A stretch of 32,000 nt of DNA from assembly GCA_015257795.3 (NCBI GenBank), contig CP072208.2, forward strand, positions 210,001-242,000, in the 5' to 3' direction. The position numbers were made by a program, and so were the translations under genes. How positions within the stretch are numbered: position 1 is the stretch's first letter; every line of letters starts with the position of its first letter. Source of the DNA: Candidatus Nanogingivalaceae bacterium (GTDB lineage Bacteria; Patescibacteriota; Saccharimonadia; Saccharimonadales; Saccharimonadaceae). Below the pieces are notes generated by a model, which saw nothing but the letters and a program-made list of their open reading frames with translations, was not told the origin of the DNA and did not search any database. Of this stretch, positions 2,809-9,153 are shown piece after piece.

Positions 2809-2826
2809 TTTTGTTCGCTTTTTGTT
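2809..2826. repeat. Inverted copy of the 18-mer AACAAAAAGCGAACAAAA (present here as TTTTGTTCGCTTTTTGTT)
   Basis: It is the exact reverse complement of 3701-3718 and 9135-9152. It lies 37 nt after the ftsQ-like stop codon. Confidence 0.85.
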
Positions 2827-3349
2827 CTATTTGATTAGTTAGAATATAAATAAAAGAGAAGTCTATAAAAAACTATATTATTATATAAAATAATAAAAAG
2901 TCAAATTTGTCAAATAATAGCAAAGCAGGGGGTTAAAACAATAATTTAATAAGCTATAAAAATGATATTTTATCGGTAAATAATCTAAAGTTTTATAAAA
3001 TATCAATAAAGATATTAAACCACGGCAATAAGCAATTTATCCCATATAATAAAAAAAGATACATGTATTAATTCTCTTTTTTATTTTTTGAAATTTTAAT
3101 GCTGGAGATTTGGTAACGAAAATCACAGATAAAAATCTTACGTTAAGAAAAAAGGTATATTAATCTATTAAATTATTAAAAGTAATACATTGTCTGTAGA
3201 GATATAAGAATGTAAAATAATAATTTGAAGATTATGTAAATATATAAATACATAAATACAAATATGGATTAAGTGTTATGATGTATGATGAATACTTAGT
3301 TATCTTATAGTACCTAAGTATTTGTCGTAAAAGATATATTGTGCGACAC

Positions 3350-3377
3350 TTGACATAATTTCTTTATTTGATAAAAT
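3350..3377 (+). promoter_or_regulatory. Sigma70-like promoter for the 78-aa gene (TTGACA-16 nt-TAAAAT)
   Basis: TTGACA at 3350-3355 and TAAAAT at 3372-3377. It lies immediately downstream of the 21-mer box. Confidence 0.5.
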
Positions 3378-3424
3378 GATCATGTAATATAAAATAATTT
3401 TAAATTTAATTAAGGAAAAATTAC

Positions 3425-3661
3425 ATGAATAAAGAAAATTTACTAAACGAAGATAATATTATTTCAGCACTTTCCCGTTTGTCTATTAAAACTCAAGAAT
3501 CGCCAAAAACTGGCAATGTCTATACTACTATAACTTTGCATTTTAAAAATGGTCTTGAAATCCGTTATTTTGTAGATCCTAAAGATAAATTTGGTCTTAA
3601 AGATGCTATTTCTCGAATTTCGCAATCTGAAAAACTAGACAATATCCTAAACGAGGACTAA
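3425..3661 (+). CDS. Hypothetical 78-aa protein with an acidic C-terminal tail, paralog of 8862..9095. It may be a phage ssDNA-binding protein or a regulator, but the function is unproven.
   Basis: A complete ORF with an AAGGA-type RBS. It aligns along its full length with the 77-aa ORF at 8862 (shared NxDNIIS...F KNGLEI.YFVD.KDKFGL.DA...ISQSEKLDNILNED). Confidence 0.6.
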   Translation: MNKENLLNEDNIISALSRLSIKTQESPKTGNVYTTITLHFKNGLEIRYFVDPKDKFGLKDAISRISQSEKLDNILNED

Positions 3662-3748
3662 CAGCTTATGTGAAATTTAAACCGTTAGCCCAAAATCGCA
3701 AACAAAAAGCGAACAAAAAAATAATATCAACGTAAAAAAGGAGTTAAA

Positions 3749-3925
3749 ATGCTTGAGCAACTAGGAGCAATCAACTTCCCTGAAAATTTGAACACTCAAA
3801 TTATCACTGGAATTGAGAGCGCATTCTCAAACGGTTTGACTTTCGTTGCGCCTATTCTTGTAGGTATGGTAGGTATTACTATCGTGCGAAAGGTTATCAA
3901 CCGCGGTAAAAGCGGTCGGGTTTAA
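3749..3925 (+). CDS. Candidate major coat protein (58 aa; g8p-like architecture)
   Basis: My own translation is MLEQLGAINFPENLNTQIITGIESAFSNGLTFVAPILVGMVGITIVRKVINRGKSGRV. It has a polar N-terminus, one hydrophobic helix and a basic DNA-facing C-terminus. AAGGAG RBS at 3738-3743. It is too short to appear in the ORF track. Confidence 0.55.
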   Translation: MLEQLGAINFPENLNTQIITGIESAFSNGLTFVAPILVGMVGITIVRKVINRGKSGRV

Positions 3926-4162
3926 TCCCCTGCTTTCTCCCAATCCTGAGTATGATTTAAAACTACTCATCTATAATATAAATTTAACAATTAAATTAGC
4001 TTAAATTATAACTTAAATTGAAATAAAAGTGATTAGTACTTTATTAGGTTCATTTTTATTTTTTACAAATCCACATCTAGTATAAAAACATCGAAAAAAT
4101 AGTTTTTTATAATCACTTTTTTATATTTTAAACTTAAGCTTATTTAATTAAAGGTAAAAATA

Positions 4163-4318
4163 ATGGTTCAAAACGTATCATCAAATGAAGTTATCGGTAT
4201 AATTTTAGACCTATTTTCTAAAGGTTTTGTTTTTCTATTACCTATCATTGGAGTATTGGCAGGAATTCACCTTTTATATTCAATGATAATGAACGTGCTA
4301 TTTAGAGATAGACTATAG
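4163..4318 (+). CDS. Small single-TM coat-like protein (51 aa), apparent paralog of 3749..3925
   Basis: Translation is MVQNVSSNEVIGIILDLFSKGFVFLLPIIGVLAGIHLLYSMIMNVLFRDRL. It shares the core pattern I..FS.G..F..PI.....GI with the 58-aa protein. The RBS is weak (AAAGG). Confidence 0.45.
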   Translation: MVQNVSSNEVIGIILDLFSKGFVFLLPIIGVLAGIHLLYSMIMNVLFRDRL

Positions 4319-4326
4319 GAGAAAAT

Positions 4327-7165: not shown

Positions 7166-8086
7166 ATGCAAGCATTAAAAAATCAAACTTCAAGGCTTTT
7201 AAAGTCAATGTTTGAAAATAATAAAGAGATTAAGTTTAAAGAGATTTCAAGCTATGCTAAAATTTATCCCGATACTATAAAAATTATTAAGTATCACCGC
7301 CCTATTGTATTTACTAACTTTTCAGATCGTGGTGTTTCCGCTATTCTCACGAACGAAGAAAACGCCGAAGAGCAAGACTATTTACAAAAATCAATCAACC
7401 GCACTAAAACTAAAATTAGCGATTATGTACTATGTAATAATTTCACACATTTTGCTACTTTCACATTTGATCCTAAAAATCCAAAAGTTAAAAACGAAAA
7501 CAACCGCCACGATTTTAAAAAAATGTCTTCCCTGCTTAAAAATTGGCTAAAAACCGAACAATTAAACCACTTTAGACATCATGGCCACAAATTCAAATAT
7601 TTAATAGTCCCCGAACGACACAAGAACGGCGCTTGGCACTTCCACGCCCTATTAGAAAATTACAAAAATGAAACCGAAAATTTTTACACACGAAAAAATA
7701 ATTATATAACAGTATCTGAACTTAAAAGCAAAAAGAAAGATAAAAACCGTAAATTCATCACAAGATATACTTTAGGGCGATCAGAAATAGCTCCTATTCG
7801 TGATAAAACTAAAATGTCTAATTATATTAAAAAATATATCACAAAAGAGCTTATAACAGATAAAAACGCTAAACGCTACTGGTCAAGTCGAAACCTAAAA
7901 CAACCTGAAATAATAGAAAATTTCATAAGTGAATTTCAAAAAATACCTGAACAATTCCTAACCGCAAAACACGATTACCACGATATTTACACAATCCCTT
8001 TAAATTGTTCATATTTCACCTTTTCAAAATACGTAAACAAACTCGAAAATCACTTCAAACGTGAAAAATTGCACATAAAAATTTAA
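7166..8086 (+). CDS. Rolling-circle replication initiator (HUH endonuclease, two-tyrosine superfamily I, phiX gpA/inovirus Rep-like)
   Basis: Motif 1 is FATFTFDP, motif 2 (HUH) is WHFHALLEN and motif 3 is NYIKKYITKE with Tyr at i and i+4. AAGGAG RBS. Confidence 0.7.
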   Translation: MQALKNQTSRLLKSMFENNKEIKFKEISSYAKIYPDTIKIIKYHRPIVFTNFSDRGVSAILTNEENAEEQDYLQKSINRTKTKISDYVLCNNFTHFATFTFDPKNPKVKNENNRHDFKKMSSLLKNWLKTEQLNHFRHHGHKFKYLIVPERHKNGAWHFHALLENYKNETENFYTRKNNYITVSELKSKKKDKNRKFITRYTLGRSEIAPIRDKTKMSNYIKKYITKELITDKNAKRYWSSRNLKQPEIIENFISEFQKIPEQFLTAKHDYHDIYTIPLNCSYFTFSKYVNKLENHFKREKLHIKI

Positions 8087-8120
8087 AAGTTATCATCTTG
8101 ATTTATCAAGTGATCACTCC

Positions 8121-8142
8121 CTATTTCAACTTGTTGAAATAG
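8121..8142 (+). terminator. Hairpin after rep (CTATTTCAAC-TT-GTTGAAATAG), a possible terminator or operator
   Basis: 10-nt arms read directly from the sequence, followed by GTTTATT. It lies just upstream of the DUF2726 gene promoter. Confidence 0.35.
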
Positions 8143-8151
8143 GTTTATTCC

Positions 8152-8159
8152 TGTATAAT
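8152..8159 (+). promoter_or_regulatory. Extended -10 (TGTATAAT), 7 nt before the ATG at 8167, implying a leaderless transcript
   Basis: TGTATAAT at 8152-8159. There is no SD sequence between it and the start codon. Confidence 0.4.
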
Positions 8160-8166
8160 TTAAAAT

Positions 8167-8670
8167 ATGGATATTTTATTATACTTTCTTGCTATTCCTA
8201 TAATTCTTGTAATTATAATTAAAGCTATTGTTTCAGATTCTGGAAATCAAAAAATTTCAACAGTATATAGATATAATCGAAAATATGTTATAATGACCGA
8301 ACGTGAACAAGAATTTTATAAAAAATTAAAATTAATTTGCGGTGATTCAATTTTAATTTTTCCACAAATTCACCTATCAAGTTTATTTTTTCACAATGTA
8401 AAAGGTCAAAATTTTAAACTAGCATTTAGATTTATTAACAGACTTTCAGTAGATTTTGTTTTAGTCGATTCAAGAAATTTTAAAACTCTATTAGCGATTG
8501 AACTTGATGACTCCACACATAACGAAAAAGACAGAATCAAGCGTGATTTAATTGTAAATGATATTTTTAAAAAAGCAAACTTCCCTCTTTTGCGTGTGGG
8601 CTCAGTCAAAATTGATAATGAAAAATTAAAGCAAATGATATTAGAAAATATAAAAAATGGTGTAAAATAA
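8167..8670 (+). CDS. DUF2726-type (PD-(D/E)xK nuclease-like) protein with an N-terminal TM segment
   Basis: N-terminal TM ILLYFLAIPIILVIIIKAIV. Core blocks are EREQEFYKKL, VDFVLVD....LLAIELDDSTH and DRIKRD....F..ANFPLLRV, which match the DUF2726 pattern as I remember it. Confidence 0.6.
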   Translation: MDILLYFLAIPIILVIIIKAIVSDSGNQKISTVYRYNRKYVIMTEREQEFYKKLKLICGDSILIFPQIHLSSLFFHNVKGQNFKLAFRFINRLSVDFVLVDSRNFKTLLAIELDDSTHNEKDRIKRDLIVNDIFKKANFPLLRVGSVKIDNEKLKQMILENIKNGVK

Positions 8671-8746
8671 ACAACATTTTTTATGTAATTTTATGGTATA
8701 ATATTTATATCTAACACTTTTAAAAAGTATATATTTTAACATAAAC

Positions 8747-8775
8747 TTGACAAATGTACAAAAAAGATATATTGT
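8747..8775 (+). promoter_or_regulatory. Putative promoter for the 77-aa gene (TTGACA-17 nt-TATTGT). Its -10 lies inside the 21-mer box.
   Basis: TTGACA at 8747-8752. The box at 8762-8782 overlaps the -10 position. Confidence 0.4.
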
Positions 8776-9153
8776 GCGACACATCTTGTTTTTCTTTTTT
8801 GAGTATGCTAATATGTTTTCGTAAATACGAAAACATAATTTTTTAAGGAGAAAAATCAATTATGCAAGAAAAATTATTAAATCAAGATAATATCATTTCA
8901 ACAGTTGCCCGTGTTGCACTTCGTACACAAAAATCTGAAAAATCTGGAAATTATTTCACTATCCTAACTTTACGTTTTAAAAATGGTTTAGAAATTGATT
9001 ATTTTGTTGATAAAAAAGATAAATTTGGTCTTCTTGACGCTGTTAAATCAATCTCTCAATCTGAAAAACTAGACAATATCCTAAATGAGGACTAACAGCT
9101 TATGTGAAATTTAAACCGTTAGCCCAAACTAGCAAACAAAAAGCGAACAAAAA
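8762..9153 (+). repeat. Right copy of the ~390-bp direct-repeat module
   Basis: See 3329-3719. The offset is 5433 nt for the box and 5434 nt for the tail. Confidence 0.9.
8862..9095 (+). CDS. Hypothetical 77-aa protein, paralog of 3425..3661
   Basis: AAGGAG RBS. It is similar along its full length to the 78-aa ORF, and the last ~13 codons are nearly identical at the nucleotide level. Confidence 0.6.
   Translation: MQEKLLNQDNIISTVARVALRTQKSEKSGNYFTILTLRFKNGLEIDYFVDKKDKFGLLDAVKSISQSEKLDNILNED

Follow-up and report, generated by a model that had tools for sequence, protein, structure and literature searches.

A probable integrase-less filamentous prophage at a dif-like chromosomal site of an oral Candidatus Saccharibacteria

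We analysed a 32,000-nt stretch of DNA (the window) from an oral member of Candidatus Saccharibacteria (CPR), and conclude with a probability of about three in four that positions 3333-8765 are the 5,433-nt genome of a temperate filamentous phage (inovirus-like, Tubulavirales) that lacks an integrase and presumably enters a dif-like site with the help of an Xer-type recombinase of the host. The insertion is intergenic, with the final dcw-cluster gene on one side and a DUF3048 gene on the other. A previous sequence-only reading had guessed at a CPR-like host, correctly, and had called the pairing of virus and host poorly explored; the host group is indeed little studied, but IMG/VR entries exist and Roux et al. 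2019 lists CPR among the inovirus host phyla. In the literature that could be searched, neither the boundaries of the IMG/VR elements nor their host site or satellite are described. A known phage lifestyle is met here in a little-studied host group.

Gene content of the prophage

The features of the region are listed in Table 1. All of the + strand open reading frames proposed earlier are present, from the 78-aa gene at 3425 to the 77-aa gene at 8862-9095, in the same order and with the same replication motifs, and there is no - strand open reading frame longer than 78 aa within 2809-9153. The GC content is 31% in the phage body and 21-25% in 2809-3500, compared with 36-37% in the flanks.

Table 1. 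Coordinates of features in and around the prophage.
Feature	Position	Strand	Evidence or remarks
Inverted 18-mer TTTTGTTCGCTTTTTGTT, host DNA	2809..2826	.	37 nt past stop of ftsQ-position gene
AT-rich host spacer, inverted 18-mer to attachment site	2827..3321	.	Aligns with phage-free L011 (76%); L056 97% up to 3356
attL, complete host dif-like site TTGTCGTAAAA, GATATA, TTGTGCGACAC	3322..3349	.	Repeat, empty-site and flank comparisons
Promoter-like site, best of region	3350..3377	+	TTGACA-16-TAAAAT with TG, 11/12 matches; directly 5' of 78-aa gene
78-aa p7x-family phage protein	3425..3661	+	Conserved core gene just upstream of coat gene
Phage 18-mer AACAAAAAGCGAACAAAA	3701..3718	+	~30 nt upstream of coat gene; exact in all phage lineages
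58-aa candidate major coat protein	3749..3925	+	Acidic N-terminal part, hydrophobic helix, basic tail
51-aa single-TM protein, candidate minor virion protein	4163..4318	+	Hydrophobicity; synteny conserved
45-aa single-TM protein, candidate minor virion protein	4327..4464	+	Hydrophobicity
417-aa candidate adsorption protein (g3p analogue)	4468..5721	+	Signal peptide, Gly/Ser-rich linker, C-terminal anchor
97-aa polytopic membrane protein	5726..6019	+	Candidate g6p-like protein or ATPase membrane partner; hydrophobicity
Zot/pI-like morphogenesis ATPase, 254 aa	6029..6793	+	Walker-type; Zot profile matches
88-aa basic protein	6818..7084	+	Open reading frame; hydrophobicity analysis
GC-rich conserved hairpin upstream of rep	7085..7146	+	GTTGCCCC-TT-GGGGCAAC inside GTGGC/GCCAC, then CCTTGTCAAGAGCCACACTTAAC
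Two-tyrosine HUH rolling-circle replication initiator (Rep), 306 aa	7166..8086	+	Motifs FATFTF, HFHALL, YIKKY in translation
Conserved double hairpin just 3' of rep	8089..8143	+	z = -4.6
DUF2726 cargo gene, 167 aa	8167..8670	+	PF10881, 83 bits; restriction-endonuclease-like fold; N-terminal TM segment
attR, phage-derived left arm TGTACAAAAAA, then shared GATATA, TTGTGCGACAC	8755..8782	.	Similarity to empty sites L052, L059 begins at 8762
Resident 77-aa p7x gene, outside prophage	8862..9095	+	100% identical in phage-free strains of same species
Resident 18-mer copy, right edge of resident module	9135..9152	+	Repeat and relative comparisons
131-aa membrane protein adjoining resident module	9322..9717	+	Paralogues (58-61% aa) as cargo in some phage variants

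The inovirus-like assignment is supported by profile matches of the ATPase and Rep. The ATPase matches a PHROG Zot-like profile (5e-7) and is 40-46% identical to the Zot proteins of circular 4.4-6.6-kb GenBank inoviruses, and many of its 1,748 Zot-family relatives carry the PF05707 annotation and lie on contigs of 4.8-6 kb. For the window sequence itself the Pfam score for PF05707 is barely over the cutoff (21.1 versus 20.3 bits). Rep matches PF23343 (REP_ORF2-G2P) above the cutoff at 44.5 bits and the rolling-circle initiator profile phrog_3419 at 1.9e-15, and is carried by 14 IMG/VR UViGs. The naming of the DUF2726 protein was also right; in some relatives this cargo is replaced by a p131-like gene. 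Profile searches of the prophage revealed no integrase, transposase or secretin, as had been proposed, and a secretin would presumably be dispensable in a host without an outer membrane.

By hydrophobicity, a single TM-like segment is present in each of the 58-, 51- and 45-aa proteins, and the 58-aa protein is a candidate major coat protein from its architecture and a weak PHROG hit (1646, 'major coat protein', E 0.027). In the 417-aa protein a signal-like segment at the N-terminus (..NAFA, then VE) is followed by a linker rich in Gly, Ser and Asn around residues 183-202 and by a TM segment at the C-terminus; the protein has no family match in profile searches, and its gene is the most variable among otherwise similar phages, with 38-63% identity where Zot is 90-93% identical. 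The C-terminal motif of the 97-aa protein (KLPALSV / KIPALSI) is similar in a 98-aa protein of bajarodino virus 41. Hydrophobicity indicates no TM segment in the ATPase, and its last ~9 residues are altered relative to the common 246-aa form by an extra A in an A-run near 6731. Virion assembly would take place at the membrane through this Zot-like ATPase, which lacks a TM segment, acting with small membrane proteins. The 78-aa p7x protein has an alpha-beta3-alpha fold with no match in Pfam, PDB or fold searches, and by position only may occupy the slot of Ff gene V.

Two conserved hairpins flank rep. The inner helix of the upstream hairpin is 100% paired, with two pairs changed on both sides, and the same element is present in inverted orientation in a 1-kb satellite; it is a candidate plus-strand origin or Rep site, from which rolling-circle replication would proceed. 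The downstream double hairpin, compared across 13 phage variants, has 99% of cells paired and three pairs changed on both sides, and could serve as terminator, single-strand origin or packaging element.

Boundaries and mobility

The 21-nt core AAAAGATATATTGTGCGACAC occurs twice, at 3329-3349 and 8762-8782, and phage-free contigs of the same species place the insertion between these copies. Each core begins a direct repeat (3329-3719 and 8762-9153, spacing 5,433/5,434 nt) of ~390 nt at 77-100% identity, and contains an invariant 15-mer (3333-3347 in the left copy). Comparison of phage-free L015 with L017 and L049 puts both breakpoints in the core, and among four phage-free contigs of the same species compared with the window (L051, L052, L055 and L059), similarity of the empty sites resumes at 8762, not 9153. 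Among about 25 occupied loci, none was seen with its junction along the p7x gene instead of in the core. The left-hand allele co-varies with phage type in six of six divergent phages and the right-hand allele is that of the local phage-free strains; one and the same phage has differing right-hand alleles in L036 and L002.

The prophage had originally been drawn at 2809-9153 with a circular junction joining ~9153 to ~3720. The phage genes and the 5.43-kb repeat spacing stand, but 2809-3328 is host spacer, the 77-aa gene and its 18-mer are resident, and empty-site comparisons move the junction to 3329-3349 / 8762-8782. The 77-aa paralog, which had been counted as a phage gene, is already present, without a single amino-acid difference, in strains of the species that lack the phage; by contrast, the 78-aa gene is the phage's own and is included in the element.

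Presence of the prophage is polymorphic within the host species, and the phage-free related genomes provide the comparison that the sequence-only reading had proposed. The same prophage is present at the same locus in IMGVR_UViG_3300006564_000119 (L036; 99.8% nucleotide identity over 5,453 nt), and between samples one nucleotide differs in 5,454. Tandem arrays are found in L020, L141 and L142. A predicted circular unit of ~5.4 kb has a counterpart in IMGVR_UViG_3300011982_000241 (L048), a close relative with a 76-nt terminal overlap forming a 5,378-nt circular or tandem unit, although this could be a collapsed tandem array instead of a free circle. These IMG/VR units are catalogue entries only. 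Neither virions nor ssDNA nor an excision junction of this exact phage were seen, and the attP pattern occurs solely where copies join inside tandem arrays.

The dif-like site

The short conserved host site resembles a chromosome-dimer resolution site. It has an 11-6-11 architecture in which the inverted arms agree at 8-9 of 11 positions (8 of 11 at attL), and the host-side arm GTCGTAAAA is kept in every species. A site of the same architecture is at the same locus in the distant lineage L144, and L147 has a more dif-like variant upstream of p7x. Similarity to canonical dif is moderate (16-18 of 28 positions, with 1-92 of 2000 shuffles scoring as high), and the site differs from proteobacterial dif. 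Gene orientation and GC skew both switch at the locus, suggesting a position near the terminus, although this draws on only ~20-30 kb of local skew and orientation and is confounded by coding-strand bias. The same core is used by at least three phage lineages and by the satellite, a Rep-less 1-kb non-coding element that is present even in a phage-free strain.

We infer that integration proceeds by recombination of attP with the host 28-bp dif-like site, catalyzed by a host Xer-type tyrosine recombinase, and that the phage supplies no recombinase of its own; the dif-like nature of the attachment site would account for the absence of an integrase. No xer gene is within the 32-kb window. The attP site would consist of the central region and right arm shared with the host site and a degenerate left arm, and because integration would leave a complete host site at attL, further elements could stack leftward.

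Alternative explanations

A unit spanning 3720-9153, formed by crossover at the 18-mer with the 77-aa gene borne by the phage and the 78-aa gene as the resident or target copy, would fit the exact 18-mers at 3701 and 9135 (5,434-nt spacing), the switch from phage-type to host-type sequence immediately after them, and the p77-type allele of the L048 circle. However, the 77-aa gene and its 18-mer are already in same-species empty sites, and the resumption of similarity at 8762, the L015 breakpoints in the core and the six-of-six tracking of phage type by the left allele all count against it; in L048 the p77 allele is native to that phage lineage (P2, core, p77 leader). The 18-mer crossover is ruled out by the empty-site comparisons, and we give this unit almost no credence. 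Integration through homologous recombination by RecA between the phage and the resident p7x module, with no site-specific step, is very improbable. The ~390-nt repeat speaks for it and mosaic p77/p78 alleles (P0069, P0082 and P0090) show that homologous exchange does occur there, but breakpoints fall in the same 15-21-nt core despite unrelated flanking alleles (type-3 versus p77, hhalign probability 0.2%), the satellite uses this core without p7x homology, and the left flanks on the phage side have nothing in common with that of the host.

If the core were a Rep nick site, Rep could itself mediate integration and exit, inserting the phage strand into a chromosomal copy of its own origin and then replicating the prophage out between the two cores without excision, in the manner of CTXphi tandems or AAV. 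Like the cleaving and rejoining initiators of the phiX174 type, Rep carries two tyrosines (YIKKY), exactly one unit is flanked by both cores, and the core contains GATAT, a string reminiscent of the phiX174 origin. This explanation is unlikely, though, because the hairpin directly 5' of rep, with its compensatory changes and its copy in the satellite, is a better origin candidate, the Rep-less satellite occupies this core in a strain whose locus is free of phage, and the two-armed 11-6-11 symmetry is that of a tyrosine-recombinase site, with host-side conservation extending past the shared core. We also think it unlikely that the element is a defective or domesticated remnant no longer forming particles. 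No particles were seen, the Zot C-terminus is changed by the 1-nt A-run difference, and degraded relatives such as L028 and the truncated right copies of L019 and L029 exist; yet every gene is intact, nearly identical prophages are present in several samples with polymorphic presence in the species, copies are arrayed in tandem in some loci and one contig is circular or tandem, and relatives have been recovered as circular genomes deposited as Inoviridae.

Comparison with known phages

A parallel in integration is offered by the Vibrio cholerae IMEX phages CTXphi, VGJphi and TLCphi, which lack an integrase, integrate at host dif through a dif-like attP with a degenerate arm, and form arrays of successive elements with tandem copies and a satellite partner (PMC9226527). 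By our reading the elements described here share these features, but the host phylum differs, protein similarity is limited to the Zot and Rep families, the site differs from proteobacterial dif (16-18 of 28 positions match), and Xer dependence is a supposition here. Each phage of the present group also brings its own version of the p7x/18-mer module that adjoins dif, for which we know of no counterpart.

Bajarodino virus 41 (PQ006142, 5,427 nt, circular) and porcine 'Inovirus sp.' (MT135285-MT135314) have ATPases 40-46% identical and also of ~246 aa, Reps ~29% identical, similar size and low GC (29%), and a mostly similar inventory (a 67-aa coat-like protein, small TM proteins, a large signal/anchor protein and a 98-aa polytopic protein), but Zot is elsewhere in the gene order, and they have no p7x homologue, no att core within three mismatches and no nucleotide similarity. 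The Ff phages (M13/fd/f1) share the one-strand arrangement, HUH Rep, small helical coat-type proteins, g3p-like and polytopic proteins and pI/Zot ATPase; unlike them, this phage is temperate, is 5.4 rather than 6.4 kb, has assembly genes preceding rep and no pIV secretin, and its ATPase is missing the TM and periplasmic portion present in pI. Filamentous and rod-shaped phages of hosts without an outer membrane, namely Propionibacterium phage B5, Clostridium phage CAK1 and Plectroviridae such as Acholeplasma phage MV-L51, have small genomes of 4.5-6.6 kb and are not known to carry a secretin gene; none of this group is among the ATPase tblastn matches in the phage collection.

The resident module

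The inverted 18-mer at 2809 is at the same place in all relatives with 0-2 mismatches, and with one mismatch in the distant lineage L144. The conserved 18-mers, including this post-ftsQ copy, fall outside the Xer/dif model and count against it. The 77-aa gene and its 18-mer probably constitute an older resident module that can swap alleles with incoming phages through homologous recombination. The adjoining 131-aa gene may have been left behind by an earlier prophage, because its paralogues are cargo in some phage variants.

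Ends of the prophage

The 5,433-nt unit is bounded by direct repeats, each of which begins with an exact 21-mer (AAAAGATATATTGTGCGACAC), spans one of two related genes encoding 78-aa and 77-aa proteins (p78 and p77, the p7x family; 77% nucleotide identity), and closes with near-identical ~100 nt containing the 18-mer AACAAAAAGCGAACAAAA. We first adopted this 18-mer as the att core, as had the sequence-only reading, and this was overturned by three comparisons with empty and differently occupied sites. In a single host species, a phage-free contig (L015) and two contigs with different prophages (L017 and L049) have right flanks that are 97% identical; the similarity of L015 to the left side ends at the end of the 21-mer, and that to the right side starts at its start. 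The window's own species is represented by four phage-free contigs (L051, L052, L055, and L059) with the gene order FtsQ-position gene, 77-aa gene (100% identical), 131-aa gene, and DUF3048. In L052 and L059 the similarity to the window resumes exactly at 8762, and L056 matches the window's left side up to 3356. Lastly, the left-hand allele tracks the phage type, with p78-like alleles accompanying window-like phages and an unrelated 'type-3' gene accompanying divergent phages (6/6), and the right-hand allele is that of phage-free strains of the same host.

These comparisons place the crossover in the 21-mer: the prophage includes the 78-aa gene, the 77-aa gene and its 18-mer are a resident module, and the sequence from the leftmost 18-mer to the 21-mer is host spacer (see table). 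The spacer shows no convincing similarity to phage sequence between 2827 and 3328, apart from the 18-mer. The 5.43-kb length proposed from the sequence was right, and its placement was rotated by ~390 nt. Because phage-free contigs exist in the same species, the block is not a conserved core shared by all relatives, and because the occupied site is polymorphic within the species the prophage may serve as a strain marker and is a likely cause of contig breaks in metagenome-assembled genomes (MAGs). Four MAG contigs (L012, L014, L024, and L027) end no more than ~260 nt past the FtsQ-position gene and two (L025 and L033) end inside it, which suggests that this polymorphic, repeated locus breaks assemblies.

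Coordinates of features at the locus and in the contigs compared with it
Contig	Coordinates	Strand	Feature
Window	2809-2826		18-mer, inverted
Window	2809-3328		Host spacer
Window	3329-3719		Direct repeat, left
Window	~3333-8765		Prophage (5,433 nt)
Window	3425-3661	+	p78 gene
Window	3701-3718		18-mer
Window	5726-6019	+	Gene for 97-aa protein
Window	6029-6793	+	Zot-like ATPase gene
Window	6725-6735		A-run with extra A (near 6731)
Window	7088-7142		Hairpin element just upstream of rep; likeliest Rep site or plus-strand origin
Window	8089-8143		Double hairpin directly after rep
Window	8762-9153		Direct repeat, right
Window	8812-8837		11-bp hairpin and T-run in leader of resident 77-aa gene
Window	8862-9095	+	p77 gene
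Window	9135-9152		18-mer
Window	9322-9717		Gene for 131-aa membrane protein
Window	17909-20997	-	Pro/Gln-rich tails
L056	6919-7938		Candidate satellite
L022	18021-19041		Candidate satellite
L047	5450-6468		Candidate satellite
L036	7503-7880		Type-3 78-aa gene
L143	1-4320		Element with p7x homologue and rve-family integrase
L028	12352-13077		Decayed locus
L019	17760-17995		Truncated right-hand p7x gene
L029	18100-18264		Truncated right-hand p7x gene
			attP diagnostic junction, contains ...CTTGACAAATGTACAAAAAAGATATATTGTGCGACACTTGACATAATTTC...
			Empty attB diagnostic junction, contains ...TATTTGTCGTAAAAGATATATTGTGCGACACATCTTGTTTTTC...

Decayed forms of the locus were also seen. L028 has a coat-gene fragment followed by a deletion reaching the p268 gene, and in L019 and L029 truncated right-hand p7x genes are joined at A-runs to the left edge of the 18-mer.

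A dif-like attachment site

The ~45 copies of the core share an invariant 15-mer, GATATATTGTGCGAC, which on the host side is always preceded by (A/T)TGTCGTAAAA; the preceding sequence on the phage side varies by phage lineage (three types) and is different again in a 1-kb satellite described below. The host site, TTGTCGTAAAA-GATATA-TTGTGCGACAC, consists of two 11-bp arms and a 6-bp centre, with inverted-repeat agreement between the arms at 8/11 positions, against 6/11 in the dif sites of E. coli and B. subtilis. It agrees with canonical dif sequences at 16-18 of 28 positions, with the same score arising in 1-92 of 2000 shuffles. There is one such site per locus, conserved across species. L144 is a contig from a far more distant lineage; its corresponding locus, also downstream of the dcw cluster, has ATGTCCTAAAA-TAAGTA-TTGTACGACAT, with arms matching at 9/11 and a p7x homologue following. 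In another element, L147, the site upstream of p7x is GTGTCGCATTATGTATACATTGTGCGAC, which matches E. coli dif at 17/28 positions (15/20 in the middle, by our own count). The left end of the prophage (attL) retains the complete host site, the host arm always being kept, and attR bears the phage's degenerate arm.

Gene orientation switches at the locus: leftward, all genes over at least 12 kb are on the + strand, and rightward, almost all over at least 8-22 kb are on the - strand. GC skew switches there as well, running at +0.14 to +0.22 left of the locus and at -0.01 to -0.05 right of it. Both are consistent with a replication terminus, coding-strand bias being confounded with skew. There is no tRNA target and no xer gene in the 32-kb window.

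Tandem prophages are present in L020, L141, and L142. [quoted passage not shown] By analogy, we infer that recombination would be carried out by a host Xer enzyme (XerC/XerD or XerS/XerH). A bolder reading, to which we give a probability of roughly 0.4, is that the conserved site between the dcw cluster and DUF3048 may be the chromosome dimer-resolution (dif) site of oral Saccharibacteria, serving as a landing pad for Xer-exploiting inovirus lineages and for the 1-kb non-coding satellite with its phage origin-like hairpin, and that each phage's own p7x/18-mer copy would rebuild the surroundings of the site.

A candidate satellite and a candidate origin

Three contigs contain a ~1,005-nt element bounded by two att cores, accompanied by a phage in L022 and L047 and alone in L056, a contig of the window's species whose locus is phage-free. 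Copies from different host species share 97.5-99% identity, and no convincing ORF or Rfam match was found in them; we regard the element as a candidate satellite or miniphage. Its similarity to the phage is limited to a 55-nt stretch, inverted, that matches the segment just upstream of rep, where a GC-rich hairpin lies within an outer stem and conserved CCTTGTCAAGAGCCACACTTAAC follows. Over 12 phage and satellite versions, pairing in the inner helix is 100%, with two pairs changed on both sides. We take this element as the likeliest Rep site or plus-strand origin.

These observations bear on a rival explanation in which the att core is the nick site of Rep, the HUH initiator, and not a recombination site. 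This is disfavoured because an origin-like hairpin is available upstream of rep, and because a Rep-less satellite is integrated in a phage-free strain. A second structure, the double hairpin directly after rep (z = -4.6, 99% paired, three pairs changed on both sides), may be a terminator, single-strand origin, or packaging element. For the R region and the intergenic segments 3926-4162 and 8671-8800, folding did not exceed that of shuffled sequence.

p7x and the conserved 18-mer

A word-indexed search shows the p77/p78 family to be narrow, and a full profile search yields 37 short relatives. In L147 the gene order is p7x, coat-like, small TM genes, large anchor protein, polytopic protein, and Zot-sized protein, and since the order around it is conserved, p7x is a core phage gene. 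It holds the position that the gene V slot has in Ff phages, a positional likeness; its predicted fold is alpha-beta3-alpha (pLDDT 79-80), with no significant match in PDB or BFVD. In L143 a p7x relative (31% identical) lies right after a complete host-type site, ATGTCGTAAAAGATATATTGTGCGAC, and heads a small-gene cluster ending in an rve-family (DDE) integrase, which looks like a different inovirus-like element at apparently the same site.

Mosaic p77/p78 alleles show homologous exchange between phage and resident p7x copies, which would account for strain-to-strain differences in the resident allele. By itself, the resident 77-aa allele appears in >1,000 indexed blocks of an assembly collection. 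Its leader contains a hairpin just before the ribosome-binding site, possibly an attenuator or terminator.

Every phage carries an exact 18-mer between p7x and the coat gene, and every resident module has one at its right edge. All hosts, L144 of the distant lineage among them (one mismatch), also have an inverted copy shortly downstream of the FtsQ-position gene, such that the two chromosomal 18-mers flank the dif-like site in inverted orientation. The type-3 78-aa gene (MQEKINVLNRIYSAKIVEKEF...EFLNEA) fills the same slot, from att core to 18-mer, in L036 and in the left copies of L019, L022, L023, L026, L047, and L049; its ...FLNE[AD] ending resembles that of p77/p78 despite no detectable homology between them.

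Phage genes and host

The + strand ORFs listed in the sequence-only reading were all recovered in place; all ORFs of the unit are on the + strand, and an ORF scan found no - strand ORFs longer than 78 aa inside the block. GC content is 31% in the phage body, 21-25% at 2809-3500, and 36-37% in the flanks. Hydrophobicity analysis gives one TM-like segment each in the 58-, 51-, and 45-aa proteins, a polytopic 97-aa protein, and no TM segment in the Walker-type protein.

The suspected relationship of the Walker-type protein to Zot was borne out by profile searches: the 254-aa protein scores 21.1 bits with PF05707 (cutoff 20.3 bits) and 5e-7 with the PHROG 'Zot-like toxin' (phrog_197). Its family has 1,748 members in a large protein collection, many with precomputed PF05707 annotation and many on 4.8-6-kb contigs. 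It is 40-46% identical (tblastn) to the Zot/ATPase of circular 4.4-6.6-kb Inoviridae GenBank records (bajarodino viruses and porcine 'Inovirus sp.'), the 46% being to a protein annotated as Zot in an Inoviridae record; one of the circular records, at 29% GC, has a gene inventory like that of the prophage. The similarity to small animal-virome 'Inovirus sp.' suggests that some orphan phages infect related hosts. Rep (306 aa), predicted to be a rolling-circle initiator, carries the HUH motif HFHALL and the Y-x3-Y motif YIKKY and matches REP_ORF2-G2P (PF23343, 44.5 bits) and a PHROG rolling-circle initiator (phrog_3419, 1.9e-15); it is encoded by 14 IMG/VR viral contigs. The DUF2726 protein is confirmed at 83 bits. 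A megablast search with the phage as query gave no match among 50,697 phage records.

Assignment of the 58-aa protein as coat is weaker: its architecture, small and alpha-helical with a hydrophobic core and a basic C-terminus, fits, the sole profile match is weak (phrog_1646, E 0.027), and there is no PDB sequence match. The 417-aa gene is hypervariable and its product has g3p-type architecture (signal-like N-terminus, Gly/Ser/Asn-rich linker, C-terminal anchor), with no match to g3p or any other profile family and only weak matches to tape-measure-like repeats. The element was described as devoid of integrase, transposase, and secretin, and none of these was found; in profile searches none of the ORFs matched an integrase, transposase, or resolvase family. 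An Rfam search of the prophage region gave no match.

The guess of a Candidate Phyla Radiation (CPR) host was correct, the adjoining MurG sharing 94% identity with its counterpart in an uncultured Candidatus Saccharibacteria MAG and 73-88% with MurG of many other Saccharibacteria/Saccharimonas MAGs, some of them oral. No Pfam or NCBIfam model matched the 'ftsQ-like' gene, which is named by position only.

Evidence bearing on activity

The prophage differs from that of L001 solely by one extra A in an A-run, altering the last ~9 ATPase residues (254 aa vs the common 246-aa form); the extra A could be genuine variation or could stem from misassembly. The copy in the IMG/VR contig L036 is 99.8% identical. 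L048, a 5,454-nt contig with an exact 76-nt terminal overlap, corresponds to a 5,378-nt relative that is circular or tandem, a collapsed tandem array instead of a circle being possible. L008, a 5,451-nt Logan contig with an 18-nt terminal overlap, was rejected as a circle, its ends being exactly the k=31 branch points of the chromosomal repeat. The exact attP pattern is absent from IMG/VR, and in metagenome contigs the attP-type junction of window-like phages occurs only as internal junctions of tandem arrays. An IMG/VR scan for the 15-mer core returned mostly chance matches in large unrelated contigs.

Implications

Proteobacteria are well known to host integrase-less inoviruses that exploit Xer at dif, and the present element, which lacks an integrase and lies at a dif-like site, is of this known kind in a new host phylum. 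CPR was already listed among the inovirus host phyla by Roux et al. (2019), and the general picture is thus unchanged. Shaiber et al. (2020) applied an inovirus detector to oral TM7 genomes; their tables list a TM7 Zot gene, and no discussion of an inovirus was found in the sections consulted. Our literature search found no published description of these phages, their site, or the satellite.

The phages that infect CPR bacteria have scarcely been characterised, and Saccharibacteria are frequent inhabitants of the human mouth; from this locus come the exact ends and the attachment site of a Saccharibacteria inovirus, together with candidates for its origin and for a satellite. Were the attachment site the host dif, it would give the phylum its first candidate dif and offer genetic tools a natural place to integrate in cultivable Saccharibacteria. 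If the dif landing-pad reading is correct, the CPR would gain its first IMEX system and its first filamentous helper-satellite pair, and a host group would be suggested for 'orphan' 4-6-kb gut and oral virome inoviruses. Of the features described, the satellite and the duplicated p7x/18-mer module most deserve further attention.

Neighbouring sequences

The chromosomal 131-aa membrane protein gene has paralogues (58-61% amino acid identity; 72% nucleotide identity, in the coding part only) that are carried as cargo replacing DUF2726 in L038, L041, L042, and L057, and it may be a relic of an older prophage. Further to the right, spikes in GC content and GC skew at 18.0-19.5 kb derive from the genes of a response regulator and of a PAS histidine kinase, whose C-termini carry long Pro/Gln-rich tails, including a (PQ)n run.
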